Below, piece after piece: positions 1 to 25,236 of a stretch of 64,000 bases of DNA. Origin of the DNA: an uncultured Candidatus Saccharibacteria bacterium (GTDB taxonomy: Bacteria > Patescibacteriota > Doudnabacteria > UBA920); contig CAZDEP010000003.1 in assembly GCA_964504715.1 (NCBI GenBank), positions 10,111-74,110 of the forward strand, written 5' to 3'. Every line of letters starts with the position of its first letter. Position 1 is the first letter of the stretch. The position numbers were made by a program, and so were the translations under genes. Below the pieces are notes generated by a model that ran no database searches, was not told the origin of the DNA, and was given only the letters and a program-made list of their open reading frames with translations.

Positions 1-3
1 GTT

Positions 4-2565: not shown

Positions 2566-2823
2566 TTAATCCTTTACTGACCGGTTAAATACCCAAGCGA
2601 ATAGCCAGCCTGCAATATGGCTGTATATAGCCATCTGTATCAAGCCGCCTATGAAGCCGCCGAAGGTATAACTCCTGCCATCTATGCTTGCTACATGGAG
2701 AAGCGACTGCATTAACCGCGCAGCAAATTCGGGGAATAGATAAACAAATAGTGAACATACGGCATACAAAAGTGCCGCTATTCCAGTAATTCCCCAAGCA
2801 AACTTAACTTTATTGAGTTGCAT
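2566..2823 (-). CDS. small integral membrane protein (85 aa)
   Basis: Two to three hydrophobic helices. It lies immediately downstream of the copA-like gene on the same strand. Confidence 0.5.
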   Translation of the reverse strand: MQLNKVKFAWGITGIAALLYAVCSLFVYLFPEFAARLMQSLLHVASIDGRSYTFGGFIGGLIQMAIYSHIAGWLFAWVFNRSVKD

Positions 2824-2870
2824 AATTTTGTTTCTGGTTAGTTTTTATCGACCTTTATATTTTAACACTT

Positions 2871-5800
2871 TTATTGAACAAAATCACTGGTAATATAATG
2901 GAAGTTGTCTAGAGGCGTTTTTGTTTCAGGCAATACTCCAGCCACAACCACATCCTTTCCAAAGAAGTTAGTTAGGGTATCACCTGGCTTTTGAAATAAC
3001 TTCTCAGCTTCCATAACTTGAGCTTCTTTGCTGCCAATATAAACTGGCAAATACCGCTTTGTTCCAAACGTTACCGGAAATAACCCGTCCCGATTAATGC
3101 TGCTACTATAAACGGCAGGGATAGTATTTTGATCTATTCCATAGAATAGCTTTAACTCATCTTTTGCCTGAGCTGCTGATGCGCCAGAAACCGAAGCGAT
3201 TTGGGTTTCAGTTTTCATGATATGGGTATTATCCAAAAATGTTCCGGTCGGTTTTAAAATACCCACAATCTTCATGCTTGGTATGCCAAAGAAATTGGCC
3301 AGGGTATCGCCAGGCTTCTCAAACAGTTTTTCTTTTTTCATCATTTCCGCCTCATCGTAGCCGATGATCATTTCGTCTTTTCCTAAATTTCCAGATCCTT
3401 CTGCCAACGGCATATCAATATTCCCTTGGTTAGTTTGCAAGAAGAATTTTGGATTATTCTCGGCAAAGTTTACCCTCATGACAGACTGCTTTATCAGGTT
3501 CTGGCTCTTTTGCGTAATCTCAGGAGATGCCTTAACAACAGTCATGGCTTTGGTTGGTTCTGCCATGCGCGAGCTGAATTGGGCGAACTCAAAGAATACA
3601 AGGGAAAAGAATACGGCCATGGCCACCGGAGCCAATGCGGATATCCAGTTGCGTTTGGTCGGCTTAAAGAACCGCAAGGTCAGGGAATTTGTAACAACCG
3701 AAACAGAGCTTAAAGCCATAGCTAGCCCAGCTAGTTCTGGCTTCAAGACCAACCCCAAACCCATAAATACGCGAGCAGCAATTGGGATGCCTACGACATT
3801 GTAGAATAACGCAAAGAACATATTTTGTTTAATTTTGCTCATGGTTTCGCGGGAGAGCTGGATGGAATTGACCACATCATTCAAGTCGCTTCTCATAATT
3901 ACGATGCCGCCGGTTTCCATGGCAACGTCAGTGCCATTGCCCATGGCAATACCGAGGTTAGCCTGCGCCAGTGCTGGTGCGTCATTAATGCCATCGCCAA
4001 CCATGGCAACTTTCTTGCCATCCGCTTGCAGCTTTTTCACCTCGTTGGCTTTATCTTCCGGCAATACCTCTGCCAGCACATTGGTAATACTGACTTGGGA
4101 AGCAATGGCTTTGGCCGTGCGTTCGTTGTCGCCGGTGATCATGTATACCGTAATACCCATTTTCTGAAGCTTTTCAACTGCAGCTTTGGAAGTGGCTTTT
4201 ACAGTATCTGCCACCGCCACTACCCCAAGCAAATTCTCATTTGTGCCGAGCAACATGGCAGTCTTACCAGCTTCTTCAAGCCTTGATTGTTTTTTTCCGA
4301 CTTTCTCCGGGTTAATGCCTGCAACATCAGACATCATTTTGCGGTTACCAAAATAGTAGGTAATGCCATAAATATCGCCCTGCACTCCATGTCCGGGAAC
4401 GGCCTTGAAGTTTTTGACTTCCAGCAAATCCACATCTTCGTCCTGCGCGTGGCTATAAATAGCTTCCGCTAACGGATGCTCGGAAAGCTTTTCCAAGCTG
4501 GCAGCAATCTGCAAAACATCATCTTCGTCTTTGTCTGCAAACGCAAGAATATCAGTTACCTCCGGTTTGCCGTAAGTTAACGTTCCGGTTTTATCAAAGA
4601 TAATAGTATTGATCTTGCAAGCGGCCTCCAAAGGTTCGCCGCCTTTAACCAATATGCCATTTTCCGCACCCTTGCCAGTGCCTACCATAATAGCCGTAGG
4701 AGTAGCAAGTCCCAAAGCGCAAGGACAAGCGATGACGATAACGGCTGTAAACGCCATCAAGGCAAAAGCTAACGTTGCGCCTAGGAAGAAATACCAAACC
4801 AAGAACGTGATGACTGCAATCACAATAACCGCCGGAACAAACCAGGCGGAAATTTTGTCTGCAACGGCCTGTATGGGAGCTTTGGATCCTTGGGCTTCTT
4901 CAACTAAGCGGATAATTTGCGCCAGCACGGTTTCGCTGCCGACCTTAGTAACTTCAAACTCAAAGCTGCCGGTCTTGTTAAGGGTTCCACCTGCCACGTT
5001 ATCTCCAACCTTTTTTTCTACGGGCAAGCTTTCACCGGTCAACATAGATTCATCAACGGCGGAGGATCCTTTAATAATACGTCCGTCAATTGGAATTTTT
5101 TCTCCGGGGCGCACGATGACAATGTCTTTATGGACAACTTGATCGATAGCGATATCCTGCGTGCCGCCATTGCGAATCACTCGGGCTGTTTTTGCCTGAA
5201 GACCCATTAATTTCTTAATGGAATCTGAGGTCTTGCCTTTGGTCCTGACTTCCAACCACTTACCCAAGATTACGAAGGTAATCAGAAATGCCGCGGTTTC
5301 AAAATATAAATCTTGAATTTTTCCGCCATTTAACCCGAGTAGAGTTTTATTTGCGACAGCGAAAAACACAAAAGTCACTAAGCTGTAAAAGTAAGCGGTA
5401 GAAGTGCCAATGGCTATTAAGCTATCCATGTTAAAGGTTTTCATCCGCAAGGCTGACCACATGCCCTTATAGAATCCCTTGCCAATAATGAACTGGACAG
5501 GTGTGGCAAGGATAAGGGAAACAATGCCTACATAAGGCAAAAGCTGCGCTTTGCCCGGCATCCAGCCAAAGAAGTCAAAGAACATGAAGTAAAGCATTGG
5601 CGCGCTCAAGATTGCGCTAAACAAAAATTTCTTCCAGTATGATCCAATTTCTGCCTGCCTTTTCTTGGCGTCGAACTCCGTATCTTTTGCATCAACCTCT
5701 TCGGCCTTATAACCAACTTTCTTTACTGCCGCGACAAGGTCTGAAATTTGAGTTTGGGAGTTATCGAATACAATTACGGCTTTTTCTGCCGCAAAATTTA

Positions 5801-6482
5801 CGCTAGCTTGGGAAACGCCCGAAACTTTCTTTAAAGACTTTTCAATAATGCCAGCACAAGAAGCGCAGTGCATGCCTGAAAGAGAAAGGCTGATTTTTCT
5901 GCTCTTGCTATTGCTCTCAATTGCGGCCGGAACGGCTGTCATGGCGACTGCCTGTGCCTGAGGTGACTGAATCCGCGGCGAATTTTGTTGTTCACTGCTG
6001 ACCTGATCAAAGACATTAAAGAACTTCGCGCTTTTCACTAATTGCTCTAAAAACCCTTTGGCCTCTTCTTGTCCTTCAGGAACAGCAATGTCAGCAGTTT
6101 TGTGGCTCGTATAAGTGCCTTCAAAATATGGCTTGCCAGTTTCTGATTCCATCACTTTCCCGTGCGCTTCCAAGCGAGTGTCCAATTTTACTGAAAAAGG
6201 TATTCCTTTTGCCACCCTGGTTTTTACTTCTATACTTTCGTTGGCAACAGGTTCTGAAGCTGTTCCTCCGCTGATTTCAGCGACATACCCCGCCCGCTTA
6301 ACAGCATCTGCAATTTGTTCTGTGGTAACCAGTTCAGGGTTTGCCTTGACTGTGCCTTTGCCTTCGGCAGCAGATATCTGGATTTCTCCTACGCCTGGCA
6401 ATTCTCTAAGTTCCTCCGTTATAAGTGTTTCGCAAGAGCTGCAATGCATCCCTTGAATGTTTAAATGTAAAGTATTTTCCAT
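2871..6482 (-). CDS. copA: copper-translocating P1B-type ATPase with two N-terminal HMA domains (GMHCSSC, GMHCASC) and an unusual C-terminal extension: one extra TM helix plus a tandem duplicated ~90-aa domain
   Basis: Motifs TGES, CPC ([12 protein letters not shown]), DKTGTLT and [10 protein letters not shown]. Two MxCxxC metal-binding domains. The C-terminal repeats share AEKLF.KPGDTL.NFFG...LDN.H. Confidence 0.9.
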
Positions 6483-6502
6483 ATCGGTTTATTAGTTACA
6501 GA

Positions 6503-6709
6503 TTATGCTGCGTGCACTTTGTATTGAGTGCCAGCAAGCGCTTCTTGCAATTCGTTAATTGTAATTTCCCTGTCAGCCTCCACTTCTCCTTGAGCCTCAT
6601 TGCCACTTTGCTCTAACTTTACGTTCCTGACTCCGCTAATTTTACTAATCTTCATGCGCGACACTTTGCCGCATGCATCGCAATTTAAATTTGTTAATAA
6701 AAATTTCAT
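6503..6709 (-). CDS. copZ: CopZ-like heavy-metal-associated (HMA) domain metallochaperone
   Basis: 68 aa, beta-alpha-beta-beta-alpha-beta-sized, with the CxxC metal-binding motif (LNCDACGKV). It sits directly upstream of the copA-like gene. Confidence 0.7.
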   Translation of the reverse strand: MKFLLTNLNCDACGKVSRMKISKISGVRNVKLEQSGNEAQGEVEADREITINELQEALAGTQYKVHAA

Positions 6710-6723
6710 AGTGTAATAGTTAA

Positions 6724-8409
6724 TTATTCTACGTTTATAATCCCGCGCTGCACTCCCATGGCGCAGGTGATGGGATATTCTCCCTTGTCCTTGGCGGTGA
6801 AGTCCAAAGCCAGTGTTTTATTTTTTTCGAGCAGCTCCGGTTGGTTATACAAGCCTGGAATCATTATGGTGCTCATACATCCATAGCCTTCGTCTTTTAC
6901 ATCAACTTCTAACCGCGCGGCTTGCCCAACTTTTACTGTGAATGTATTTGGTTCAATGTCATTATCAGTTCTATAGACTGTTTTTAATATTTGTGTGCCA
7001 GTTGCAGGTTCAGCGGTTTTTGCTTCAACTGCCGGTTGTGCTTGCTGGGGAGTTGAAGCCGGGGTAGCCTGAGACTGGACGGGGTTTGTGTCCTCAATGA
7101 CATTAAACGATCCTCTATACATTCCCATTGAACACGTAAAGCTTACGGTGCCGGTTTTAGTAGGAGTGAATTCAATAATATTTTCCCCTGATTTTAGCGG
7201 TTGGCTAATTTTATAAGCAGACATTACTATATAGCTTGAACATGAGTATTGGCTGGTAGAATTGATTATCCATTTTACCGGCCGTCCTTTGACCACAGTA
7301 AATGACTTTGGGCTGTAACCGCTGTCGCTTTGGGTCATTCTTACTTCTTGCGCTGGTCCCGTTGCCTGCGCTGTATTTGCCGTTTTCGTGCCTGGCGTGA
7401 ATACAATCCTGCTGGCGTTGGAAATATTAAATATTCCCAACACAATAACTGCTATGCCAGCGCCCATAAAGAAGATGCGGGCTTTTTGGCCTTTGAATAC
7501 ACTGGACAATCCTCCGATCCCTAAAAGTCCAGGAGCGGTGCCTAAGGCAAACAGCATCATAATTAATGCTCCTTTGGTAAGGCTCCCGGTGCTTACCGCA
7601 TACAGCTGCATGGCTTGTGTAAAACCGCATGGCAAGAAGAACGTCATGGCTCCGCCAATAAACGCAGACTTGTGGCTATACTCCTTGTTCTCATTGCGGA
7701 TGCCTAATGCGCGGGATATGAACTTTGGAAGGGTTATGGTTTTGTCCCGCAATGCCGGAAATATTTCAATGAGCTTAAGCCCCAGGAAGATCATCACCCC
7801 GCCCACAATAATAGTCATGATTCCCAAGGTGGAAGCAGAAGGTCTGAAAGCAGATCCCAACAGGCCAATTGCCCCGCCAAAGAAGGCATATCCTGCAATT
7901 CTCCCGACGTTAAAGAATATGTGCGGACGGAACTTTTGCGCTGCCGTCGCTTCTGGGTGAAGTTCGCTATGACGAGCCGCCAAACCTAATACTAATCCGC
8001 CGATTAAAGCCATACAGGACGAAAATCCGGCAACTAGCCCTACTAGAACAACCACGCCCATACTGCCGCCGCCTGTGCTGATGTTCACATTGAACAGCCC
8101 GGTAGAACTTGCGATAAAATACAGGACTGCAAGAATGGAACCGGCAAGCAGCAAGTAAAAGTAATCTCGCGGGTTGCGCGATATCCAAGGCAGTTTCTCT
8201 TTTTGCCCGATTTCATAACCCGCAGCCTGCACAGCATCCCTTATACTTTGTTTGGAAGGCGTTGGTCCTTCAAAATGGACTTTCGCTTTTCCGTCTTTAT
8301 AGCTTACATTGACTGATTTGACTCCCTTAACTTCTTTAAGGTTGTCTTCAATGAGGATTTCGCACGATCTACAGTGCATCCCTCTAATTGGAACAATAAA
8401 TTTTCCCAT
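6724..8409 (-). CDS. HMA-domain fused TauE/SafE(DsbD_2)-like polytopic membrane protein with a C-terminal tandem pair of ~55-aa C-x-M-G-M (cupredoxin-like?) domains; putative metal permease
   Basis: N-terminal GMHCRSCE HMA domain and ~8 TM helices with an LPCGFTQAMQ motif. The C-terminus has the repeats FTCSMGMYRGSFNV and ITCAMGVQRGIINV. Confidence 0.7.
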   Translation of the reverse strand: MGKFIVPIRGMHCRSCEILIEDNLKEVKGVKSVNVSYKDGKAKVHFEGPTPSKQSIRDAVQAAGYEIGQKEKLPWISRNPRDYFYLLLAGSILAVLYFIASSTGLFNVNISTGGGSMGVVVLVGLVAGFSSCMALIGGLVLGLAARHSELHPEATAAQKFRPHIFFNVGRIAGYAFFGGAIGLLGSAFRPSASTLGIMTIIVGGVMIFLGLKLIEIFPALRDKTITLPKFISRALGIRNENKEYSHKSAFIGGAMTFFLPCGFTQAMQLYAVSTGSLTKGALIMMLFALGTAPGLLGIGGLSSVFKGQKARIFFMGAGIAVIVLGIFNISNASRIVFTPGTKTANTAQATGPAQEVRMTQSDSGYSPKSFTVVKGRPVKWIINSTSQYSCSSYIVMSAYKISQPLKSGENIIEFTPTKTGTVSFTCSMGMYRGSFNVIEDTNPVQSQATPASTPQQAQPAVEAKTAEPATGTQILKTVYRTDNDIEPNTFTVKVGQAARLEVDVKDEGYGCMSTIMIPGLYNQPELLEKNKTLALDFTAKDKGEYPITCAMGVQRGIINVE

Positions 8410-8428
8410 GAAGTAATTAATTTAATTA

Positions 8429-9490
8429 TTAGACCCCGCAACCACCACCGCCCTTAGGTGCAACCGGCTCTACTTGGCTTCTAATTTGTTGGTATCCTTG
8501 GGCGCTGGAAAACGCTGCTCCCAATACTTCCTGCGGGTTGACCTGTTTCCAGTCAACTCCTTGGCTTTTTTTATACTTGGCTATTGTCAGGTAAGTATCC
8601 GGGAACCAATAAGAATTTACTGTTAGAGCATACTTATACATGTCCTGTTCGTTTACCCCTTGGGAAGCCATGAGTTCCAGCAAGCCCAGCATTGCCATCC
8701 CATGGTTGCAATCAGGGAAGTGGGTGGAATTGCCGCAGCAAGGGCGGAAGATTCCCCGCGAGACTTTATCTACAATCGCTTGCTGCTCTGCTGTTAAAGT
8801 TATAAAGCGATGTTTTGAATAGTGCTCCATGGCAGTTCCGCTGGCCAATGTCCATCCTCCCGTTGAGGCGAACTTTCCGGCATCGCCGCCGTATTGCTTA
8901 TCCCACATTTCGCCTTTATCCAGGATCTCATTTTTCTGTCCTAGTCCGAATGCCCAGAGAATATTTAACAGGCCGGAAGAATTTTGAGCGGTAAATTTGA
9001 TTTTCCCATTATTGCTTTCTGTCAGCATCTTTTTCATATCCGCTGGCATTCCGCCTCTTTGGGCATATAAGGCCTCTATTTTTTGCTGGTCAATTACTCC
9101 TTCTTTGACCAATTGCTTGCCTAAGTCTCCCCATACAACCGGCAATTCAAGGCCAGCGCTAGGTAAAACTTTTTCTTCCATATCTTTATCGATCGGAGCG
9201 GCGGCTGGCGCAGTTGAAGTTTGGGCTAAGGTCTGGGTGGTAACCGCCGTCTGTTGCGCCGGTTTGACACCCAATACTTTATTAAGCCAAGGTTTGCGTT
9301 TTACCGTAACCTGAAACTCAAAGGTAGAGGTTATGATAAGGATCGCGATTGCGGCCATTCCGGCCATTTCCAGATAGGAAAAGTCTTCCATGCGGGCATA
9401 TGTTTTTTTCAGAAACATTTTTATCCCGCTTTTTTCATGATGGTGTTCAGTAATTTTTTGCTCTTCACCGGGAACATGATGGTTTTCCAT
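8429..9490 (-). CDS. membrane-anchored hypothetical protein with a His-rich N-terminus (HHVPGEEQKITEHHHE) and a Cys/His cluster CCGNSTHFPDCNHGM; putative metal-binding exoprotein
   Basis: 353 aa, a single TM segment after the His-rich tail, and a conserved-looking Cys/His cluster. No family recognised. Confidence 0.55.
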   Translation of the reverse strand: MENHHVPGEEQKITEHHHEKSGIKMFLKKTYARMEDFSYLEMAGMAAIAILIITSTFEFQVTVKRKPWLNKVLGVKPAQQTAVTTQTLAQTSTAPAAAPIDKDMEEKVLPSAGLELPVVWGDLGKQLVKEGVIDQQKIEALYAQRGGMPADMKKMLTESNNGKIKFTAQNSSGLLNILWAFGLGQKNEILDKGEMWDKQYGGDAGKFASTGGWTLASGTAMEHYSKHRFITLTAEQQAIVDKVSRGIFRPCCGNSTHFPDCNHGMAMLGLLELMASQGVNEQDMYKYALTVNSYWFPDTYLTIAKYKKSQGVDWKQVNPQEVLGAAFSSAQGYQQIRSQVEPVAPKGGGGCGV

Positions 9491-9526
9491 AATCTTATTT
9501 TATTGTTTAATAATTTTAATTATTGA

Positions 9527-10045
9527 TTATTCCTGGCAACAGTCGACCAATTTGCTGACTATATCTTCTTTTGTCCACGGTTTATTCTCCCCATTTTGGT
9601 CGTGCTTATTAAGCTGGTTTTCTCCTATTTGCTTAATGTCACCGGTGTTAATAAGTTTTAGCCTTAATCCCCAAAACAGAGAATAGAGTTCGTAGGATTT
9701 GCCAAAAATGTCCTGCGCTTCTTCAGTTTTGCCGTTGCTTTGAAGCTTCGTGCCTACTTCCATAAGCCTCATTGAGGCGGCAAGCAAGTGTTTTGATATG
9801 CACCAAGTCTCGCCTTCATTTTTGTCCATCATGCGGCCGAGCAATTGCTTCCTAATTTCCCTCGTTTGCTCAAGTAGATTAAAGTATTCGGGTTTGCTGG
9901 TTTTTTGGCCGGTAAAGAAGAAGTGTTCTTCTAAGCTAATCAAGTTCATTATTGCCAAGCTTAGGTCTTCTTCGGTGGAAAGATCAACAGTGCCGCTGGC
10001 TTTAAGTTCCTCCACTTTTTTCATTAGCTCTTTTTGTGTAAGCAT
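9527..10045 (-). CDS. hypothetical cytoplasmic protein (172 aa)
   Basis: Clean ORF in an operon-like arrangement. No motif recognised. Confidence 0.5.
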   Translation of the reverse strand: MLTQKELMKKVEELKASGTVDLSTEEDLSLAIMNLISLEEHFFFTGQKTSKPEYFNLLEQTREIRKQLLGRMMDKNEGETWCISKHLLAASMRLMEVGTKLQSNGKTEEAQDIFGKSYELYSLFWGLRLKLINTGDIKQIGENQLNKHDQNGENKPWTKEDIVSKLVDCCQE

Positions 10046-10049
10046 AAGA

Positions 10050-10838: not shown

Positions 10839-10842
10839 AGGG

Positions 10843-11382: not shown

Positions 11383-11476
11383 AGTTTTTAATAAGCATTA
11401 ATAGAGACACTGTCTATATTAGTTCCTCAGCTCGCTTGTCTTTGTAAACAAAGACAGACTCGCTTACGTCACTAAT

Positions 11477-17722: not shown

Positions 17723-17968
17723 TTAATGATTATGGTCATGGGGTGCGTCTTCAACCGGTTTTGACTCTGATTCATCATCTTCCTTTTTACCATGTCGCAT
17801 GCCAAAAAGATGGAAAACCACCATAAGCCCGACAGCGCCTAATATAGCCCACTTAAACCAGGAACTGTCTCCACCCCGGCCGGCAAACACCAAAAGCAAA
17901 ATCGGCAAAGCGCACCCAATCATCATCCACCACATCATATTGGAATTGTTGTCATTGTGATTGTGCAT
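17723..17968 (-). CDS. DUF2933-like small membrane protein with His-rich termini
   Basis: 81 aa, MHNHNDNNSNMMWWMMIGCALPILLL...HDHNH. This small-protein type commonly flanks heavy-metal ATPases. Confidence 0.5.
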   Translation of the reverse strand: MHNHNDNNSNMMWWMMIGCALPILLLVFAGRGGDSSWFKWAILGAVGLMVVFHLFGMRHGKKEDDESESKPVEDAPHDHNH

Positions 17969-17980: not shown

Positions 17981-18250
17981 TTAATTTTTACCTACTAAAC
18001 TGGAATTGTGCATCCAGACCATGTAAGCCCCAAAGACCCAAGCTATAATGGCAATTAAAATTGCTCCCCAGATAAAGCTGCCAAAGCTTATCCACGTAAA
18101 ACCGGGCAGGGTTTCAAATAACTGATGATGCAATTCTACTGCTCTTTGGCTGCGAAAAGGCAGGAATCCGCCAACCAGGCAAAGCACGTAAGCTATCTCT
18201 GCTCCCAATACGCACTTCTTTACATAAGATTTAAAAGACAGTTTTTCCAT
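17981..18250 (-). CDS. small membrane protein (89 aa)
   Basis: Two hydrophobic helices in the same operon. Confidence 0.45.
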   Translation of the reverse strand: MEKLSFKSYVKKCVLGAEIAYVLCLVGGFLPFRSQRAVELHHQLFETLPGFTWISFGSFIWGAILIAIIAWVFGAYMVWMHNSSLVGKN

Positions 18251-18268: not shown

Positions 18269-18505
18269 TTAGTTTTTGTTTAGTTCTAACTTTTTTGTTT
18301 CAAATTCCTCCTTGCTTATTTCGCCTTTGGCATAGCGTTCTTTAAGAATGTCGAGGGCAGAACCCGCATGAGTGGTAAGTTTACCGCTTGCTTCAATGGT
18401 CAGCCAGATTACAAAGAATATAATCCCCGTCCAAATCAGCATCATAAGAATATCTCCAAAAATACCCCAGCCGAGCATATGCCCAAAATAATAATTACCC
18501 ATCAT
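18269..18505 (-). CDS. SHOCT-domain small membrane protein
   Basis: TM helix followed by ALDILKERYAKGEISKEEFETKK, the characteristic short C-terminal (SHOCT) domain. Confidence 0.7.
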   Translation of the reverse strand: MMGNYYFGHMLGWGIFGDILMMLIWTGIIFFVIWLTIEASGKLTTHAGSALDILKERYAKGEISKEEFETKKLELNKN

Positions 18506-18519: not shown

Positions 18520-18798
18520 TTATCTGTTGGCTAAATGGTAAATTTCTATCAGTTCCTTGACTGCCTTATCATTCTGCCCGGAGGTCTGCATTTGGTGCTT
18601 GACGTGGGTTCTAATGTGGTTTTCCAGCAAAAGCTGGTCAAGACTCTTAAGCGACCTTTGAATGGAAAGGGACTGGCGCAATATAAGGGGACAGTATTCC
18701 TCTTTGTCTATGGCTTTGATTAGGCCTTCCATTTGCCCTTTTAGTATTTTTGCCCTATGGAGAGTTTTTGCTTTTAGTTTTTGGTCTAATTGGTGCAT
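18520..18798 (-). CDS. csoR: CsoR/RcnR/FrmR-family (DUF156) metal-sensing transcriptional repressor
   Basis: 92 aa helical protein. HRAKILKGQMEGLIKAIDKEEYCPLILRQ plus downstream His residues match the CsoR Cys/His ligand pattern. It sits between the ATPase and the membrane-protein genes. Confidence 0.8.
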   Translation of the reverse strand: MHQLDQKLKAKTLHRAKILKGQMEGLIKAIDKEEYCPLILRQSLSIQRSLKSLDQLLLENHIRTHVKHQMQTSGQNDKAVKELIEIYHLANR

Positions 18799-18822: not shown

Positions 18823-18866
18823 TATACCCCTATACCCTATTTTAGCAGGTTAAAAAAAATTGTCAA
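18823..18866 (-). promoter_or_regulatory. candidate sigma70-like promoter (TTGACA -16nt- TAAAAT) with an overlapping direct repeat tataccc-c-tataccc (candidate CsoR operator) upstream of csoR
   Basis: Read on the minus strand: ttgacaattttttttaacctgctaaaatagggtatagggggtatag. The -35 overlaps the stop codon of the upstream ATPase gene. Confidence 0.4.
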
Positions 18867-20734
18867 GCCTGGGCTAAGGAAAACAGTTTCAAGCTGTTAA
18901 ATATAACCAAAATTGCCATTCCTGAGTCGGCTCCGATGGCATACTCAAGATGAGTAAAACCAAACAAAGCAAGTATGAGAAAAAGCGCTTTAACCGCTAA
19001 TGCGGCCATAATATTTTGCTTGATGGTTTTAACTGTTTTCCTGCCCAAGTCTATCGCAAAAGGAATATTGAGGAGGTTATTGTTCATCAAAGCAATGTCA
19101 GCGGTTTCTATGGCTACATCGCTTCCACCGGCGCCCATAGCTATGCCAACGCTGGCCGTGGCTAAAGACGGCGCGTCGTTAACCCCATCTCCCACCATTG
19201 CCACAATGCCAAATTCTGCTTTCATGTTTTCAATTTTTTGCACTTTTTCATCTGGCAACAGCGAAGCATAAACTTTTTCAATACCCAGCTGTTTGGCAAC
19301 AAAATTTGCGCTGTGTTTGTTATCCCCACTCACAATGGCAGAGGTAATTTGCTTTTTGCTTAATTCATGAACACTTCGTTTTGCTTCCGGACGAATTTTG
19401 TCTGAAATGGCCAGCGCTCCCATAACAGTCTTGTCGCCGCTCACCAAAACTACGGTTTTGCCCTGCTTCTCCAAATTTTCTGCTTTTGTTAAGACTTCCT
19501 GGCTGACCGCACTGCTTGCGCCAATAAATTTTAAATTGCCTATACAATGATCTTTATCCTCGCAGACCAGACACACCGCCCGCCCGCCTTTGCCAGCGGT
19601 GTTTTGATAGTTTTCCATTTTATGCGGGGAAATGCCTTTTTGTTTGGCAAAATCTATGATGCTTTTGGACAAAGGGTGCGAAGAGAACTGCTCAATCCCT
19701 GCAGCATCTTCCAACACTTCTTTTTCAGTAAAACCATTAAAGGCAACGGCTTCGGATACATAAGGCTCCCCGACAGTTAAAGTTCTAGTTTTATCAAAAG
19801 CCACTGCCTTAATTTTGCCCAAAACTTCCAAAAATTTGCCGCCTTTAATCAAAATTCCTCTCTTGGAAGCTCCTCCGATCGCGGAAGCAATAGATACAGG
19901 AGTGGAAATAACCAGGGCGCAGGGGCAGGCAATGACCAAAAGCACTAAAGCCCGATACAACCAAGTTTCAAAGGGGGCATGAAACAGTAGCGGTGGAATA
20001 ACCGCAATTAAAAAAGCTACTGCAACAATTGCGGGAGTGTAATACCTGGCAAAACTATCAATAAACTCATGGGCGGGGGCGCGGGATGCCTGTGCCTGTT
20101 CTACCAATTTGATAATTTTTGCAAAAGTAGAATCCTTGCTTGCTTTCTCCACTTTAATTTCTAAATACCCGTGCTGGTTTATAGTTCCGGCAAAGACCAT
20201 GTCCCCTTCATGTTTATCTTTGGAAATAGATTCACCGGTAATAGTTGCCTCATCTACAGCCGAAAACCCTTTTACCACGGTTCCGTCCAAGGGAATAAGA
20301 TCTCCCGGACGGACAGCAATAACTGTTCCGATAGCAATTTGTTCAACAGGCAGCTTTTCTCCGTTCAATAAAATGGCTGTTTGAGGAGATTTTTTTATCA
20401 GGGCTTCCACGGCTTTTCGTGAACGTTCAATGCCAAATTCTTCAAAAAACTCTGCCAAAGAAAAGAAAAATACGACCGCGGCCGCTTCTGCCAGCTGATT
20501 TATGTATATGGCGCCAACGGCTGCCATGGTAACCAAAAAGTTGATATTCAAAAAACGCTGCTTTGTCAATCCTCGAACAGCAGTCATAAAGACAAAATAG
20601 CCGCCTGAAGCTATGGATAGGTAATACAAAAACATGGTTGCGGCGGGCGGCGTTTGCAGAAATTTTGCCGCCCATGCCGCAACCAGGCTCAAGCCCGAGA
20701 TGAAAGTAAGCAGTTTTTTTGTATTCATTCTCAA
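18863..20734 (-). CDS. P1B-type heavy-metal ATPase lacking an N-terminal metal-binding domain; CPC motif; TM7/TM8 residues (K..., DSGMAILV) resemble Zn/Cd/Pb-type (P1B-2) pumps
   Basis: [24 protein letters not shown] and GDGVNDAPSL. No HMA domain. Confidence 0.8.
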   Translation of the reverse strand: MRMNTKKLLTFISGLSLVAAWAAKFLQTPPAATMFLYYLSIASGGYFVFMTAVRGLTKQRFLNINFLVTMAAVGAIYINQLAEAAAVVFFFSLAEFFEEFGIERSRKAVEALIKKSPQTAILLNGEKLPVEQIAIGTVIAVRPGDLIPLDGTVVKGFSAVDEATITGESISKDKHEGDMVFAGTINQHGYLEIKVEKASKDSTFAKIIKLVEQAQASRAPAHEFIDSFARYYTPAIVAVAFLIAVIPPLLFHAPFETWLYRALVLLVIACPCALVISTPVSIASAIGGASKRGILIKGGKFLEVLGKIKAVAFDKTRTLTVGEPYVSEAVAFNGFTEKEVLEDAAGIEQFSSHPLSKSIIDFAKQKGISPHKMENYQNTAGKGGRAVCLVCEDKDHCIGNLKFIGASSAVSQEVLTKAENLEKQGKTVVLVSGDKTVMGALAISDKIRPEAKRSVHELSKKQITSAIVSGDNKHSANFVAKQLGIEKVYASLLPDEKVQKIENMKAEFGIVAMVGDGVNDAPSLATASVGIAMGAGGSDVAIETADIALMNNNLLNIPFAIDLGRKTVKTIKQNIMAALAVKALFLILALFGFTHLEYAIGADSGMAILVIFNSLKLFSLAQA

Positions 20735-20750: not shown

Positions 20751-22361
20751 CTATTCTACCTTAAATTTCATCATCATGCCACTTTCTAGATGTTCAGCAA
20801 TATGACAATGCGCCATCCAAACGCCGGGATTGGTAACGTCCAAGAGGATTTCAACAGTGTCTCCGGTTTGAATAAGCGCCGTGTCTTTCCAGACCAGGTT
20901 GTCGTTTTTTACCCCGTTGGTCGAAAGCACCAGAAATCGCTGGCCGTGGAAATGAATGGGATGCTGCATCGGGTGCATGGCGTTGGGGTCGTTGAAAATC
21001 TTGATTTTAACCTTGTCGCCGACTTTAAATTTCCAGTCTATATCCATGTTCTTTTTGCCCGTAACGCTGTCAGTAAGTTGCCAAGTTAATGTTTTGGTTG
21101 TGGAATTGACGTTCATCATGTCCATGTCGTCTTCCCATTCGATTTTTTTGATGCCACCGGACATGCCCATGGCGTCATTGTCCATCATCATGCCGTTGCT
21201 CATCATATGCTGGCCCATTCCACTATTCATCATGCCGTTTTGAGATCCCATATTAACCGCCAGGGTCAGGGTCTTGTCCGGCTGTTTGTCGAAGTACGAC
21301 CTAAAGGGATCTATGCTGGCCTGCACATCTTTATTGGTTCTTAGCATGTTAAATTCCTGGGCGTAAGAAGGATTAGCAGAATCGGCTGAAACGTTTATTT
21401 TCGCCAGAGGGTAAGTTTGTGGCGAGCTCCTGTGCTCTAAGGTAAAACTGCCGGGCTGGGAAAATAACACGTCGACAATGGCGCGCTCGGACGGACTAAT
21501 GATAATATTTTCCACGAACTGCTCTTTTTCGTATTTGCCGCTGTCGCCGCCCACCAGCTTCATTTTTGCTCCCGGCAAGTTAACGTTAAAAGTACGGGTA
21601 TTGGCCGCGTTGGTCAGATACAGTCTGACCAACTCGCCCTTTTTGGCGCTGATTTGATAGTTGGTTTCGCCGTTGACCAGCATAACGTCGCCAAACCTGC
21701 CCATCAGAGTGTGGTCAGCGGTTTCAGCATTGAACGCTGTAATGCCATTATCGTCAAACAGAACGTCATCCAAAAATAGCGCCTGCTCCTGGTTTACCGG
21801 CGACCAATAATCAGGGTCGTTCGATGACACTAAGAAATTGCCGTAAAGTCCCATTTCCTGGGCATAATCTTCCCGGATGTGTGGATGATACCAATACATA
21901 CCTTCGTCCGGGAATTTGATTTTGTAAGCAAACGATTCGCCAATCCCGACTGCTTTCTGGGTCACGTCCGGCACGCCGTCAAAGGCATTGTCCAGCCTGA
22001 CGCCGTGGGAATGAATGGTCGTTGGCACGTCGGTGTTGTTGGTAAAATTTATGGTTACTTCCGAACCCTTAGCCGCTTTAATTAATGGCCCCGGCACAGA
22101 GCCGTTATAACCCAGCATCTTAACTTCTAAATTTCCGATTTTTTTTCTGACAATGTCCGCGGTCAAATTAAAAGTGTCGCCGTTTTTTAATTCCACGGTT
22201 TGCTGGGGTTTGGCTTCCGGCAGCTGGCCTAAAGATTGGCTGGAAAATTTAATTTGCGAACCGGCCGGTTTTGGACTTTGCGATTTGCTTTTTATCAGCC
22301 ATACGGAACCGGCCGCGACCAGCAAAACGGCAATTATTAAATATATGCTGTTTTTTTTCAT
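20751..22361 (-). CDS. multicopper oxidase (CueO/laccase-like) with a Met-rich insert
   Basis: Signal peptide. Copper-ligand motifs HSHG, WYHPH, HPIHFHG and HCHIAEHLESGMMM. Met-rich segment MGSQNGMMNSGMGQHMMSNGMMMDNDAMGM. Confidence 0.9.
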   Translation of the reverse strand: MKKNSIYLIIAVLLVAAGSVWLIKSKSQSPKPAGSQIKFSSQSLGQLPEAKPQQTVELKNGDTFNLTADIVRKKIGNLEVKMLGYNGSVPGPLIKAAKGSEVTINFTNNTDVPTTIHSHGVRLDNAFDGVPDVTQKAVGIGESFAYKIKFPDEGMYWYHPHIREDYAQEMGLYGNFLVSSNDPDYWSPVNQEQALFLDDVLFDDNGITAFNAETADHTLMGRFGDVMLVNGETNYQISAKKGELVRLYLTNAANTRTFNVNLPGAKMKLVGGDSGKYEKEQFVENIIISPSERAIVDVLFSQPGSFTLEHRSSPQTYPLAKINVSADSANPSYAQEFNMLRTNKDVQASIDPFRSYFDKQPDKTLTLAVNMGSQNGMMNSGMGQHMMSNGMMMDNDAMGMSGGIKKIEWEDDMDMMNVNSTTKTLTWQLTDSVTGKKNMDIDWKFKVGDKVKIKIFNDPNAMHPMQHPIHFHGQRFLVLSTNGVKNDNLVWKDTALIQTGDTVEILLDVTNPGVWMAHCHIAEHLESGMMMKFKVE

Positions 22362-22364: not shown

Positions 22365-22922
22365 TTACCTCGCTAATGTTTCCGGCGATTTGTTCTTGTT
22401 CGCCTTAATGAATTCTAAAATTTTAGCTTCGTCATAATTTTCCATCTTTTGCAAGCGCCCCCAGGAAGCCAGGACGATTTTGGAATCATTTGCCGATCTT
22501 GGGGTCATTATAATACTGCTGGAATTGGCTTTAGTTATGGCTTCAAGGCTTGCTTTGGTCTGGTCGTCGATGTCGTTATAGGAAATCCAGATGCCGCCGT
22601 GTTCCAGATTGTGGATCATTTTAACGTCCGGCTGCACATCATCAAACACGCCCCACTTTTCCGCATACTCAAAATGCGGGCCGGAAGTCGGCGGATTGGA
22701 ATTATATTCGGCTTTAAAGTTAATGTCTTTGGTGTGATCCCGTCCCAAAATGGGAATTTCCTCTCCCACCTGGGGCAGATTGGAAGACGCCTCCCTCACA
22801 GCGAGCTTACTGGCTTTCTGGTCCTGCAAGAACAGTAAAACACCCAGTCCTAATGTGCCAACCACTATCAATATGATGATAATAATTTTTTTTCCGCCTC
22901 CAGCGGACATGGTTTTGTTCAT
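22365..22922 (-). CDS. DUF3105-domain membrane-anchored protein
   Basis: NSNPPTSGPH...HNLEHGGIWISY pattern typical of DUF3105. Its stop is 3 nt from the MCO start. Confidence 0.65.
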   Translation of the reverse strand: MNKTMSAGGGKKIIIIILIVVGTLGLGVLLFLQDQKASKLAVREASSNLPQVGEEIPILGRDHTKDINFKAEYNSNPPTSGPHFEYAEKWGVFDDVQPDVKMIHNLEHGGIWISYNDIDDQTKASLEAITKANSSSIIMTPRSANDSKIVLASWGRLQKMENYDEAKILEFIKANKNKSPETLAR

Positions 22923-22934: not shown

Positions 22935-23369
22935 TTACTTTTTCAAATCCCCGATATAATATTGTTCCAGCATTTTTCTGGCGTTTTCCGAATGGGGAAT
23001 CTTGGAACCCATTGGCCTGGTTTCAAACAATTTCGTAGCATCTATGCCGCAGGCCTGGAAAATCAATTCTCCGCCGGGATGGCTATTACTGGCAAATTCC
23101 AGGATATCATAAACCCTACCATGGATAATAGCCCAACACTCCTCGGAGTCGGGATCAGCGCCATGAGCGGCTACTTCTTCCATAGTATAGGTTTTGGCCG
23201 GCATGGTGACGCTTTCCATTTCCGTTTTGGCGGTTTCTTGTTGAGACCTGGTCTGTTGCTCCATATTTTGTGTGGTATCTGATTTAACCCGGGTCTTATC
23301 CTTTTTGAAATACAGAACCGACAATATTGCCACTGCCAGAATTAATAAACCTATTGCAACCTTTTTCAT
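22935..23369 (-). CDS. cytochrome b5-like heme-binding domain protein, membrane anchored
   Basis: N-terminal TM segment. The C-terminal domain has the HPGG motif (FASNSHPGGELIF) and a Y..D.......HPGG pattern. Confidence 0.75.
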   Translation of the reverse strand: MKKVAIGLLILAVAILSVLYFKKDKTRVKSDTTQNMEQQTRSQQETAKTEMESVTMPAKTYTMEEVAAHGADPDSEECWAIIHGRVYDILEFASNSHPGGELIFQACGIDATKLFETRPMGSKIPHSENARKMLEQYYIGDLKK

Positions 23370-23884
23370 TGTTTATTGATTATTTTACAGACCTGCTCCG
23401 TGGGATAGGAAATTATCATGAAATACAACGTCATTAGCAATAAAACTATTGCCACGACAGATATTTCCGTTCCTTGGAAAGGAAAATACACTAGACTGCC
23501 ACTTAGTCCCAGCAAGGCAAGGATGGGCAGGCCACACAGGGCGCAACCGCTGCTGACAATCGCCAAAAGCGAACTACCTCCAACCATGATATGTAGCTTC
23601 CCGCCACCCCGCAATACAGATATCCGTAAACCAAGCAAAGTTAAATTAATTCCAGTTAAAACTGCGGTAAAAGCAAGTAGGAACAAAGAAACTTTAGTCA
23701 TTGCCGTCCACATTCCGCCAAGCAAGATGATGAGCAGTCTAAATTTATAAGATAGCGGAAAACTGCCAAAGATAGTGTCCTTTACCAAAATGAAATTCAT
23801 CAAGTAAACAGCCAAAATAATATATATAACGGCAATGCCTAAGCTTAAGCTCAAAAATTTTTTAGATAACAAGATTTCTCTCAT
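23366..23884 (-). CDS. hypothetical polytopic membrane protein with a CALC motif
   Basis: 5-6 TM helices. It overlaps the downstream gene by 4 nt. Confidence 0.5.
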   Translation of the reverse strand: MREILLSKKFLSLSLGIAVIYIILAVYLMNFILVKDTIFGSFPLSYKFRLLIILLGGMWTAMTKVSLFLLAFTAVLTGINLTLLGLRISVLRGGGKLHIMVGGSSLLAIVSSGCALCGLPILALLGLSGSLVYFPFQGTEISVVAIVLLLMTLYFMIISYPTEQVCKIINKQ

Positions 23885-23897: not shown

Positions 23898-24719
23898 TTA
23901 TTTTAGCTGCTGGTCAATTACGGTTTTAAACGCTGCATAAGGCTGGGCGCCGACTATTCTGGCGCCGTTAATTGTGCCGTTGGAAGTGGATTTGCCAATA
24001 AACCAAGTCGGTGTGCCAGAAGCGCCCGCCGCTGTGGCATCGGCGATATCCTTGTCTACTTCGGCCTTAAACTTTTCCGAATCCAAACATTGCTGGAATT
24101 GGCTTACGTTTAATCCTAAATCTTTTGCAATTACCGGCAATTGGTCTAACGCTATCCCGGTGCCGTTGGAAGTGGTTTTGGTGAAAATTTGGTCATGGTA
24201 TTTATAGTATGCCGAATCTCCGCCTTGCGTCCGGGCGCATTCAGCCGCTTGTGCCTCCTTGTGGGCGTTTTGGTGAAAGGCGAGCGGCAAGTCACGATAG
24301 ACGAACTTTACTTTTCCGGTATCAATATAATCCTTTTTTAAGTTAGAGATAACGTCATTAAAGGAGCGTTTGCAGAACGGGCATTCATAATCAGAAAATT
24401 CAATTATCGTTAGCGGCGCATTTTTGCTGCCCATAACAGGATCATCGTCCACAGAAACTTGAGCCGAGCCATCAGTCGGAGGGGTTTGTGCTGCTGCACT
24501 TGGAGCGTTCGGCGCTTGTTGCTGGTAACCAGCAAGTTGAGTAAGCCCCGAGCCTTTGGTTATAAACTGTTTGGTGTTATAGAAGATAGAACCTGAAATT
24601 AAGACTGCGCCAATAAGGATGGCCGCTGGTAGCATATAAGTAGTATTGTTTTCCGTTGTCTTGCTAACCGGCGGCGTATTTTCCGCCTCATGATGTTGGT
24701 GGTGCATGTGCTGTTCCAT
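23898..24719 (-). CDS. DsbA-family thiol:disulfide oxidoreductase (thioredoxin fold), membrane anchored, His-rich N-terminus
   Basis: CPFC active site (YECPFCKR). N-terminus MEQHMHHQHHE, then a TM anchor. Confidence 0.85.
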   Translation of the reverse strand: MEQHMHHQHHEAENTPPVSKTTENNTTYMLPAAILIGAVLISGSIFYNTKQFITKGSGLTQLAGYQQQAPNAPSAAAQTPPTDGSAQVSVDDDPVMGSKNAPLTIIEFSDYECPFCKRSFNDVISNLKKDYIDTGKVKFVYRDLPLAFHQNAHKEAQAAECARTQGGDSAYYKYHDQIFTKTTSNGTGIALDQLPVIAKDLGLNVSQFQQCLDSEKFKAEVDKDIADATAAGASGTPTWFIGKSTSNGTINGARIVGAQPYAAFKTVIDQQLK

Positions 24720-24750
24720 ATTTTATTGTTTGAAATTAATTGTTACCGCA

Positions 24751-24807
24751 AATAAAAAACCAGCGTAATATTTATTTCATAACAAAACAATAAATATTGG
24801 GAGCTGG
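24751..24807 (-). terminator. rho-independent terminator on the minus strand after the 24814-25236 gene
   Basis: Hairpin ccagc-gtaatatttatt...aataaatatt-gggagctgg. An A9 run on the plus strand gives a U-tract on the minus strand. Confidence 0.5.
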
Positions 24808-24813
24808 TTGAAA

Positions 24814-25236
24814 TTAAACGCTGTAGATTTTTGGATTCAAAATTCCTTGAGAAAAAGCTAAAAGCAAATAATTATGCAAAACAGATATGTTTTGCCGTAA
24901 GTAGTAAATTCTGGAAGCTATGAATTTTTCAGCTTGACCAAAAAGTTTAAGAAAAGAAATAAAGACCAGTCCCACCAAAAATATCATGCCGGAGCCAAAG
25001 TTTTTATTTTCTACGATGCTTGAGCCTAGTTGTTCAAAAAAGCTATTATTGGGCGCATGAATTTCACAACAGCTGGAGGAATCTTCAGATATCATCGGCA
25101 TTGTAGAATTTTCCTGTGCGTAAGCTACTGTGTGCATATCTCTGTTAAAAAGACTGCAAATACCCGAAAAGCCTCCTAAAAAGAGGCTTATAAAAATTAG
25201 GCTAAATAACGAATATTTTAATTTACTTGTCAACAT
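24814..25236 (-). CDS. hypothetical membrane protein (140 aa) with a CC motif
   Basis: ORF with a TM segment at each end. This is the first gene of the minus-strand cluster. Confidence 0.45.
   Translation of the reverse strand: MLTSKLKYSLFSLIFISLFLGGFSGICSLFNRDMHTVAYAQENSTMPMISEDSSSCCEIHAPNNSFFEQLGSSIVENKNFGSGMIFLVGLVFISFLKLFGQAEKFIASRIYYLRQNISVLHNYLLLAFSQGILNPKIYSV

Follow-up and report, generated by a model that had tools for sequence, protein, structure and literature searches.

A 27-gene copper-centred metal-defence array built of recurrent CsoR-operon modules, probably acquired or reshuffled horizontally, in a genome of the candidate phyla radiation

We analyzed a window of 64,000 nucleotides from a metagenome-assembled contig (CAZDEP010000003.1) of a bacterium of the candidate phyla radiation (CPR; Patescibacteria), and in it a gene array at 2566-25236 that a first-pass annotation had described as a heavy-metal/copper homeostasis island of about 30 consecutive minus-strand genes. 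The array is single-stranded as described, but it holds 27 minus-strand open reading frames (ORFs), with a coding fraction of 0.975. Its assignment to metal homeostasis was supported by the signatures of its ATPases, by a CsoR-family repressor with a conserved promoter operator, and by the recurrence of most of its unassigned genes beside CsoR and Cu-ATPase genes. The genes, numbered g01 to g27 from left to right, are as follows.

g01, 2566-2823, minus strand, 85-aa DUF5676 protein with two transmembrane (TM) helices (PF18926, 58.4 bits), last gene of unit D
g02, 2871-6482, minus strand, 1203-aa CopA-type P1B-1 ATPase with two HMA domains
g03, 6503-6709, minus strand, 68-aa CopZ-like HMA protein with a CDAC motif
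g04, 6724-8409, minus strand, 561-aa protein with HMA, DsbD_2 and two Cupredoxin_1 domains (Pfam)
g05, 8429-9490, minus strand, 353-aa protein with a His-rich N-tail, a signal-anchor TM helix and an external domain of about 250 aa
g06, 9527-10045, minus strand, 172-aa cytoplasmic helical-bundle protein
g07, 10050-10838, minus strand, 262-aa CcdA/DsbD_TM-like membrane thiol-electron transporter
g08, 10843-11382, minus strand, 179-aa membrane-anchored DUF1573 protein with a CMC motif, heading unit D
g09, 11567-12016, minus strand, 149-aa membrane protein
g10, 12038-12475, minus strand, 145-aa membrane protein
g11, 12480-14663, minus strand, 727-aa CopB-type P1B-3 ATPase with a His-rich N-terminus and HMBD
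g12, 14670-15446, minus strand, 258-aa FNR-like flavoprotein (NAD_binding_1, 73 bits)
g13, 15450-16142, minus strand, 230-aa membrane-anchored protein
g14, 16145-16801, minus strand, 218-aa polytopic membrane protein with invariant H24, H94, H137 and H153
g15, 16803-17273, minus strand, 156-aa protein with an anchored external domain
g16, 17270-17716, minus strand, 148-aa membrane protein with a CC motif
g17, 17723-17968, minus strand, 81-aa protein, His-rich at both ends
g18, 17981-18250, minus strand, 89-aa DUF5676-like protein
g19, 18269-18505, minus strand, 78-aa SHOCT protein
g20, 18520-18798, minus strand, 92-aa CsoR-family repressor
g21, 18863-20734, minus strand, 623-aa P1B-2-type ATPase with a DKTRT variant
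g22, 20751-22361, minus strand, 536-aa three-domain multicopper oxidase (MCO) with a Met-rich insert
g23, 22365-22922, minus strand, 185-aa anchored DUF3105 protein (Pfam, 96 bits)
g24, 22935-23369, minus strand, 144-aa membrane-anchored cytochrome b5-like protein (Pfam, 65.7 bits)
g25, 23366-23884, minus strand, 172-aa membrane protein with a CALC motif
g26, 23898-24719, minus strand, 273-aa anchored DsbA-like protein with CPFC and a His-rich N-tail
g27, 24814-25236, minus strand, 140-aa membrane protein, a unit of its own with a terminator hairpin at about 24757-24810

The array is tightly packed, and at 21 of its 26 junctions the neighbouring genes overlap or are separated by no more than 21 nt; of the several 4-nt ATGA overlaps claimed earlier, only two were found (g15/g16 and g24/g25). 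An apparent 35-nt overlap between g10 and g11 vanishes when g10 is started at its second Met (12475; 145 aa, as in L001 and L095; compared loci and contigs carry L numbers), and this is most likely the start of g10. Judged by larger gaps, promoter-like sites and hairpins, the array comprises about four transcription units.

Unit A, g27 only, minus strand, 3' end at a hairpin and U-run at about 24.76-24.81 kb
Unit B, g26 to g21, 24719-18863, minus strand
Unit C, g20 to g09, 18798-11567, minus strand, promoter at 18866-18839 and terminator at 11506-11485
Unit D, g08 to g01, 11382-2566, minus strand, followed by a weaker hairpin at 2480-2461
Promoter TTGACA-16-TAAAAT with operator ATAGGGTATAGGGGTATA, 18823-18866, minus strand, before g20
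Terminator hairpin of unit C, 11485-11506, minus strand, -21.4 kcal/mol, z = -7.0, with a U-run

The putative intrinsic terminators and the csoR promoter of the first-pass annotation were recovered: hairpins followed by U-runs lie at 11.5 kb (z = -7.0) and 24.8 kb (z = -2.5), and the site at 18866-18839, before csoR, matches a sigma-70-like promoter at 11 of 12 positions. The unit D leader contains a near-perfect palindrome, TGTCTTTGT-TT-ACAAAGACA (11432-11457), which lies between g08 and the preceding terminator and could be a site for a second regulator.

Most of the domains recognized earlier were matched above the Pfam cutoffs, including three E1-E2 ATPases, DUF1573, NAD_binding_1, SHOCT, Trns_repr_metal, DUF3105, Cyt-b5 and Thioredoxin_4/DSBA; the DUF2933-like member was not, since no island gene matched DUF2933 in Pfam. 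The HMA-permease fusion is g04, in which an HMA domain is joined to a DsbD_2 membrane domain and two cupredoxin-like domains, all above the Pfam cutoff. The proposed CopZ, g03, has the CDAC motif, but its HMA score (20.6 bits) falls short of the Pfam cutoff of 24.8. The Met-rich multicopper oxidase was found in g22, with Cu-oxidase_3, Cu-oxidase and Cu-oxidase_2 domains (Pfam) and the motifs HSH, HPH, HPIHFH and HCHIAEHLESGM; judged by these domains and motifs, g22 is a CueO-like multicopper oxidase. Ten unassigned proteins had no NCBIfam match, and for this set relaxed Pfam searches returned only MacB_PCD and weak Ytp1/LiaF-TM matches (g14). No family match was obtained for g09 and g13 in Pfam, NCBIfam or relaxed Pfam, nor for g27 in Pfam and NCBIfam. 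His-rich N-terminal tails occur in g05, g11, g12 (8 His among the first 25 residues) and g26, in addition to the His-rich ends of g17. The proteins g01 and g18 are weakly related, and a comparison of g16 with g25 as possible paralogs showed that they are not.

P1B-type ATPases are divided into subtypes by signature motifs. In Arguello's classification, P1B-1 pumps have DKTGT, CPC(x)6P in TM6, N(x)6YN(x)4P in TM7, P(x)6MxxSSxxVxxN in TM8 and an N-terminal HMA CxxC; P1B-3 pumps have CPH in TM6, NL..GYN(x)4P in TM7, MSxST in TM8 and a His-rich N-terminus; and P1B-2 pumps (ZntA/CadA) have CPC(x)4SxP in TM6, N(x)7K in TM7 and DxG in TM8. By these motifs the three ATPases belong to three different subtypes, as the first-pass annotation had held: g02 to P1B-1, g11 to P1B-3 and g21 to P1B-2. 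The HMAx2-CPC pump g02 carries the P1B-1 motifs at residues 630, 586, 887 and 915 and the HMA Cys motifs CSSC and CASC, and the His-rich CPH pump g11 carries CPHALGLAIP, NLFWATGYNVVALP and MSLSTVIVALNA, with 7 His in its first 25 residues and an HMBD. The third pump, g21, had been described as a CPC ATPase without a metal-binding domain; it does lack an N-terminal one, but its motifs CPCALVISTP, NIMAALAVK and GADSG place it in P1B-2, and its phosphorylation motif reads DKTRT in place of DKTGT. We infer from these motifs that g21 transports Zn/Cd/Pb-type ions. The presence of three subtypes by signature indicates that the island is copper-centred but not copper-only. In five other loci (L091, L066, L028, L039 and L031), HMBD-bearing P1B ATPases have CPD in TM6, not CPH or CPC; to our knowledge, CPD is not among the classical P1B subtype signatures.

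The CopA-type pump g02 is extended at its C-terminus. Residues 946-1203 (2874-3647) form a ninth TM helix and a duplicated external domain of about 210 aa, and relaxed Pfam searches matched this extension to MacB_PCD (PF12704) in two stretches (E = 1e-5; 26.4 bits, cutoff 27). Both halves keep the motifs EAxMM and LDxxH. An exhaustive HMMER search showed that the extension family comprises 172 representative clusters. All ten of the longer members read (504-1125 aa) have the P1B-1 TM7/TM8 motifs upstream of the extension, and among these CopA fusions seven are near-complete CopA-type ATPases and three are N-terminally truncated; two members of about 300 aa start with the last TM segment of the ATPase and are therefore apparently gene fragments. 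Because the added TM helix precedes the extension, the extension should face outward, and a reasonable guess is that it is an outward-facing Cu(I) acceptor or docking domain. The PF12704 match is its likeness to the periplasmic core of MacB/FtsX-type ABC transporters; there the core is joined to an ABC permease, whereas in g02 it is joined to a P-type ATPase. Two relatives of the extension that are CopA fusions, P0313 and P0326, have W where G is expected (for example DKTWT), which suggests that their lineages read UGA as Gly (code 25) and that the proteins were translated with the wrong table.

The regulator g20 matched the CsoR family (PF02583) with 61 bits against a cutoff of 22.8, so that its place in the CsoR family stands, but its ligands, C36-H61-H65, are not the canonical x-C-H-C. 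The CsoR of T. thermophilus is of the x-C-H-H type and is considered a Cu(I) sensor of possibly relaxed selectivity, while the Ni/Co sensor RcnR has the ligand set H-C-H-H (PMC11672702). In g20, H2 is also present, so that an RcnR-like H-C-H-H can be read, together with a CsoR-like Y35. We infer Cu(I) specificity for g20 from this ligand pattern. The operator ATAGGGTATAGGGGTATA starts in the last bases of the -10 hexamer and extends downstream, and the identical ATAGGGTATAGGGGTATA lies upstream of orthologous regulators in L091, L061 and L024. At most other CPR loci, the corresponding place is taken by a classical palindrome, ATACCCC-N-GGGGGTAT, which in the g20 clade is replaced by the direct-repeat-like ATAGGGTATAGGGGTATA; this element would be the binding site of g20. 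Across the fetched CPR copper loci (L003-L092), the type of regulator was paired with the type of pump: C-H-C regulators were followed by a CPC/HMA CopA in 15 of 15 cases, and C-H-H regulators by an HMBD ATPase (CPH/CPD) in 14 of 20 (Fisher p = 1.8e-5). Many CPR csoR promoters also have a DnaA-box-like TxTCCACAG about 8-12 nt upstream of the -35 TTGACA (L019, L027, L028, L039, L058, L061, L076, L081 and L087).

The recurrence of the island genes was determined by tblastn of all 27 proteins against 80 genome loci bearing g05 relatives, the best kept of at least 587 species-level genomes with such a relative. Nearly all of the 80 genomes are labelled Patescibacteria/CPR, a few are labelled only 'bacterium', and three are labelled Gammaproteobacteria. 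Counted over the 43 loci that are 15 kb or longer, the genes lying no more than 10 kb from g05 were a P1B ATPase (38), DUF1573 (27), CsoR (26), a CcdA-like gene (20), g15 (17), g06 (16), g16 (16), g04 (11), g18 (9) and DsbA (8). These genes are nearly all on the same strand as g05, and the order of the modules varies. The recurring set consists of CsoR, SHOCT/DUF5676 small membrane proteins, a P1B ATPase, a membrane protein of about 140 aa, DUF1573, a CcdA-like protein, g06 and g05, and an HMA-DsbD_2 protein with cupredoxin is frequent in the same neighbourhood. Within this set, DUF1573, the CcdA-like protein, g06 and g05 form the conserved core. Over all 80 loci, DUF1573 (g08) was present at 49, g07 at 39, g04 at 21 and DUF3105 (g23) at 7; the pair g15/g16 is recurrent (24/80 and 23/80), mostly adjoining. 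The counterpart of g04 is two separate genes in L010 and L092.

The smaller genes have similar contexts. Homologs of g01 are located in copper loci L009, L020, L022, L024 and L026; a homolog of g03 is at the equivalent position in L003, L004 and L095; g09 homologs lie 3' of an ATPase in L001, L003, L004, L026, L044 and L095; the single homolog of g13 is in copper locus L017; the counterparts of g17, g18 and g19 come after CsoR at many loci; and the pair g25/g26 recurs in L026, L028 and L056. Since the unassigned genes mostly recur beside CsoR and Cu-ATPase genes, across dozens of CPR species, they are linked to copper operons by neighbourhood and not by position alone. The island is the largest such array among the loci compared, the other fetched stretches holding 1-13 of its 27 gene types. 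In L003, whose g05 is 71% identical, an RND-type ACR_tran protein of 1036 aa and a 590-aa partner lie between g05 and g04 (11119-16427), which indicates that modules can insert inside the cassette.

These data also bear on whether the array serves copper supply instead of detoxification, with Cu inserted into secreted MCO and cupredoxin proteins and the thiol proteins acting as a metallochaperone line. Some P1B-1 ATPases (CtpA/CopA2-type) do load cuproproteins, and the array encodes external cupredoxin domains, in g04, as well as an MCO and anchored proteins rich in Cys. However, the three pump subtypes include a Zn/Cd-type one, the core cassette usually lacks an MCO (found near g05 at 1/80 loci), and CsoR-type derepression by excess Cu follows the logic of an efflux system. 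We therefore regard a supply function as very unlikely.

A rich thiol-disulfide complement, as claimed in the first pass, is present in the CcdA-like g07, the DUF1573 protein g08 and the DsbA-like g26. The CcdA assignment of g07 is tentative: its two TM Pro-Cys motifs, NPCA and FPCTGGP, agree with it, but DsbD_TM scored 23.8 against a cutoff of 27.1 and SfLAP 32.3 against 35. Two further proteins that may belong to this complement come from very large families. The g05 family has at least 5986 clusters at 90% identity, and its few named matches are CPR or 'bacterium'. No match to g05 was found in Pfam or NCBIfam, nor in PDB sequences with a single sequence or a profile, and 32 members of the family gave no Pfam match at E <= 10. 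The motif RPCCGNSTHFPDCNHG and a C-terminal Cys are invariant, and the invariant residues include C251, C252, C261, H263 and C351. The AlphaFold model of g05 is confident (predicted local distance difference test, pLDDT, 83.8), and a Foldseek search of it against the PDB found nothing. In an hhalign comparison, RPCCGNSTHFPDC of g05 fell opposite LRCPKCQNNS of CcmH in matching register, with a non-significant E = 0.59. Membership of g05 in the CcmH family was rejected, given the lack of LRCxxC, of Pfam membership and of a significant hhalign score; without significant homology, g05 is described as having a CcmH-like sub-domain, and membership is not claimed. Compared with the CcdA-ResA/CcmG-CcmH thiol pathway of cytochrome c maturation, the g05 motif is RPCCGNS...C where CcmH has LRCxxC, the g05 domain is about three times larger, and g05 occurs in copper operons with no cytochrome c genes seen nearby.

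The g06 family has at least 8000 clusters, is without a Pfam or NCBIfam model, and shows 63-82% identity across 29 aligned homologs. The protein g06 has no TM helix, and its invariant residues include H41, C82, H86 and a C-terminal DCCxE. Some DUF1573 members have a selenocysteine motif, U-G-C, in place of the CxC (PMC9312934), and these forms suggest that the motif is a redox site or a metal site. A thioredoxin gene separates the g06-like and g05-like genes of L005. Taken together, these features of g05, g06 and DUF1573 would fit an external thiol relay driven by the CcdA-like protein, similar in principle to Scs copper tolerance or to the CcdA-CcmH pathway. We put forward, as a tentative proposal only, that DUF1573, CcdA-like, g06 and g05 form an undescribed, phylum-wide, extracytoplasmic copper thiol relay, in which a CcmH-like fold may have been adapted to defend against copper or to capture Cu(I) and would be driven by g06. 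Neither the full-text searches on CPR copper resistance nor those pairing DUF1573 or DUF3105 with copper yielded any account of the cassette.

We then compared the array with its surroundings. Its GC content is 43.4%, compared with 47.8% at 26-64 kb. The tetranucleotide correlation is 0.85 between island and rest and 0.96 within the rest, and the correlation of relative synonymous codon usage is 0.75 and 0.94, respectively. GC content at third codon positions (GC3) is 0.457 in the island and 0.535 in the rest of the window (Mann-Whitney test per gene, p = 1.8e-6). These results show that the array is a genomic island by composition. The atypical codon usage extends into both flanks.

Left flank, 1-2565, low GC3, with a 174-aa protein fragment, RadC and small ORFs
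GIY-YIG nuclease gene, 25872-26204, plus strand, GC3 0.315

Both the RadC-like gene (497-994, minus strand) and the repeats that had been noted on the left are present; the latter are a duplication of about 150 bp (1005-1154 and 1676-1825, 671 bp apart, 84-90% identity) that overlaps small ORFs and lies between RadC and the island. Contig L093, reached via RadC, is 100% identical over window 1-1077 and continues to the left. Its positions 598-10581, left of the window, encode an M23 peptidase, VirB4, PrgI, two membrane proteins, the pilin of a type IV secretion system (T4SS), a Replic_Relax protein and a coupling protein (T4CP), the Replic_Relax (PF13814) protein adjoining the T4CP. The T4SS cluster has a GC3 of 0.447, which does not differ from that of the island (p = 0.50) and differs from that of the rest (p = 3.8e-5). 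On the right, Csp and later genes have host-like GC3, which places the compositional border at about 26.3-26.7 kb. Since the T4SS cluster on the left and the GIY-YIG gene on the right share the atypical codon usage, the block is at least 36 kb long. VirB4 and the T4CP are thus contiguous with the metal genes, as in a conjugative system.

A second genome, L095 (GCA_040960095.1), shares window 3190-14467, with unrelated flanks beyond. Identity, measured in 300-nt bins, changes along the shared part as follows.

g11 body, 71-78%
g10, 93-100%
g09 and the g09-g08 spacer, 80-83%
Core cassette of about 5.4 kb, 11455-6056 (g08 to the start of g02), mostly 97-100%, with three bins at 86-94%
g02 body, 81-89%
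End of g02, 47-62%

This mosaic identity indicates recent recombination of the core cassette between lineages. It could be argued that the contig is a chimera, in which a mobile-element contig was joined to a chromosome, as the source is a metagenome assembly and the right junction (25-27 kb) rests on a single assembly. Against this, independent Logan contigs are 100% identical over 1749-14433 (L001) and 1-1077 (L093), and island proteins occur with an IF-3 cluster member on one NCBI contig of 79,662 bp; a chimera is accordingly highly improbable.

From these results, the array is probably a copper-centred metal-defence cluster, in which recurrent CsoR-operon modules are assembled into an unusually large set of 27 genes within a foreign-codon block of at least 36 kb together with a T4SS. 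The foreign-codon block, the T4SS and the recently recombined core make horizontal acquisition or reshuffling its most likely history. Horizontal origin or exchange is thus likely, and the vehicle is possibly an integrated conjugative element.

Several observations weigh against this reading. The first-pass annotation had named a gene order shared with distant chromosomes as an argument for a core and not a mobile locus, and this was found in part: DUF1573 - CcdA-like - g06 - g05 is conserved beside CsoR and an ATPase in distant CPR chromosomes, which argues that the core is a phylum-wide module and not a one-off import. Outside the core, other genomes seldom or never have the FNR-like gene, g13, g14, the MCO, cytochrome b5 or g27 close to g05, and g09 and g10 are likewise rare there. 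An integrase or a tRNA had been suggested as a further sign of mobility; there is no tRNA or tmRNA in the window (Rfam at the gathering threshold matched nothing in the whole of it), no recombinase was seen in 74 kb, and no convincing flanking direct or inverted repeats were found within 1-28500. Elsewhere, the cassette and T4SS genes are not generally linked, and a 2025 survey reports that the T4SS of Patescibacteria are chromosomal, widespread and mostly without a relaxase, and argues that most have been co-opted for other roles (PMC12102498), so that a neighbouring T4SS is no proof of an integrative and conjugative element (ICE). The MCO and DUF3105 have host-like GC3 (0.58 and 0.55), which makes the island itself a mosaic, and low GC3 could partly reflect gene class and not origin. 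The island scan found no further CsoR box or G-tract operator before the other units, unit C alone having one. Finally, neither Pfam score of g07 reaches its threshold, and the model of g06 has five helices (pLDDT 75.2) with only generic helical-bundle fold matches. The horizontally acquired island of the first-pass annotation is therefore upheld in its codon bias, its T4SS neighbour and its mosaic relation to L095, but not in the phylum-wide core or in the search for an integrase, a tRNA or repeats.

Several of these observations would be explained if the array were a vertically inherited core CPR copper regulon grown by local accretion, with codon bias due to gene class or expression, an ordinary T4SS and nothing mobile. 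In keeping with this, the order g08-g07-g06-g05 beside CsoR and an ATPase occurs in many CPR classes, among housekeeping genes (tRNA synthetases, RuvA/S20, ScpAB), and no att repeats were found. However, GC3 is a synonymous-site measure and its difference is sharp, the non-membrane ATPases of the T4SS share the bias, and membrane proteins in the rest of the window have host-like GC3 (Nramp 0.58, SdpI 0.52). In addition, the near-identical core in L095 lies between diverged ATPase genes with unrelated flanks, and the cassette occupies a different place in each of the genomes compared. A purely vertical history thus appears rather unlikely.

The rarity of the redox genes near g05 and the host-like GC3 of the MCO and DUF3105, which suggests a separate history, can also be read in another way, namely that the MCO, cytochrome b5, the FNR-like protein and g14 form a small electron-transfer or oxygen-scavenging chain that lies among the metal genes without serving metal defence. 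In Parcubacteria, oxygen handling has been suggested as the role of multicopper oxidases and of partial electron-transfer chains. However, in the CsoR operon of L091 the order g14 - FNR-like - CopB matches the island, with g14 and the FNR-like gene between CsoR and CopB, and in L092 g14 closes a CsoR-CopA-HMA/DsbD_2-cupredoxin-DsbA cluster. One member of the small g14 family (43 clusters) carries a fused Cupredoxin_1, the FNR-like protein has the eight-His N-tail, the MCO has a CueO-like Met-rich insert, and g12-g14 lie inside the operator-controlled unit C. We therefore consider a separate chain unlikely.

To the right of the island, the 580-bp composition-biased non-coding tract of the first-pass annotation corresponds to a gene-free tract of about 590 bp (25237-25823), which was found in addition to hold a conserved element.

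Conserved non-coding element, window 25301-25795, minus sense, with a copy in L095 at 3036-3532

The L095 copy is 72% identical over window 25301-25692 and lies at the head of the copper cluster of that genome, with unrelated DNA beyond. A 16-mer scan, whose matches were mostly due to chance and were filtered by BLAST, revealed homologs in eleven further metagenome contigs with no island genes nearby (L138, L137, L144, L101, L210, L173, L142, L117, L150, L189 and L211), and the element was absent from the viral contigs scanned. Several copies have a promoter-like TTGACA, and there is an AT-rich tail. Two to five direct repeats of about 12 nt (CTAGTTGAAC-like) and one inverted copy give an 11-bp stem, followed by a spacer of about 65 nt and a near-invariant 34-nt box, GACTAyTATCTCACCAGAGAATCAACTGAACGAC, the last 16 bases of which are identical in 13 of 13 copies. 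Compensatory changes occur at 8 pairs of the stem, and the RNA consensus fold supports one helix only, which could equally reflect repeats at the DNA level. Rfam gave no match to the element (at E <= 1 over 24700-27900, only chance-level matches, none of them in the tract). The element may encode a small RNA or may act at the DNA level, as an origin, a partition site or an attachment site. By motif alone, a tyrosine-recombinase-like fragment (C-terminal motif) lies about 380 nt upstream of the element in L137, and a serine-recombinase-like N-terminus about 1.4 kb upstream in L189. What the window holds outside the island is consistent with a CPR genome, with pilin-like proteins, giant surface proteins and few metabolic genes; two further genes there code for an Nramp-type metal importer and a glutamate-cysteine ligase-like protein of the GCS2 family (42686-44062; 47363-48928), both with host-like GC3.

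The system is a variant of known copper-defence clusters, and copper clusters on mobile DNA are familiar. With the CsoR-CopZ-CopA systems of B. subtilis and T. thermophilus it shares a CsoR-family repressor whose putative G/C-tract operator overlaps the promoter, a chaperone-like HMA protein and a pump with the full P1B-1 signature, and its x-C-H-H ligands match the T. thermophilus subgroup (PMC11672702). It differs in that the operator is direct-repeat-like where an inverted repeat is usual, the regulator heads the CopB unit and not CopA, and CopA adds a TM helix and a MacB-like external domain. As in ICEs with metal cargo and the MPF-FATA-like T4SS of Patescibacteria, T4SS genes, RadC beside the cargo and atypical codon usage common to both are seen; the island differs in that no integrase or att sites were found. 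The copB-mco(-copL) loci of S. aureus and Listeria confer horizontally transferred copper hyper-resistance, and the island shares with them a His-rich P1B-3 pump, a multicopper oxidase and a mobile-looking context; it is without a CopL homolog, is about ten times larger, adds thiol-redox modules and has a CPR host. ScsABCD is an envelope thiol-redox system that suppresses copper sensitivity. Here the shared, proposed logic would be a DsbD/CcdA-type reductase feeding external Cys-motif proteins that protect against copper and perhaps bind Cu(I); the partners in the island are DUF1573 (CxC) and g05 and not the thioredoxin-fold ScsC/ScsD, and there is no sequence homology.

We propose the following model for the array. 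Cytoplasmic Cu(I) would free the g20 repressor from the promoter-overlapping operator and turn on unit C, which includes the CopB-type g11. Cu(I) would be exported by the CopA-type g02, with the CopZ-like g03 as donor, and by g11, and Zn/Cd-type ions would be exported by g21, the transported ions being predicted from motifs. Outside the membrane, g22 would oxidize Cu(I), and the thiol relay may keep envelope cysteines reduced or hold Cu(I). In this relay, g07 would be the route by which reducing equivalents reach g08 (anchored, CxC) and g05 (CC...C) on the outside, with g06 (CxxxH, CC tail) as a possible donor or Cu(I) carrier, and g26 with its partner g25 would re-form disulfides. In the weakest step of the model, electrons for these reactions may cross the membrane by way of g12, g14 and cytochrome b5.

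If the CPR genome is assumed to be about 1 Mb, the cluster takes up about 2% of it. A CopA family with an added external domain bears on the question of how Cu(I) is released and handed over outside the membrane. If the thiol relay is true, the cassette and the external domains of CopA would mean that ultra-small bacteria handle surface copper with parts that lack a characterized counterpart. Linkage to CsoR and Cu-ATPase genes, invariant Cys/His sites and a predicted topology give a functional context, open to direct testing, to two very large and highly conserved CPR families without models. Finally, the recent recombination of metal modules between CPR lineages beside a conjugation-type system is relevant to whether the T4SS of CPR bacteria still move DNA.

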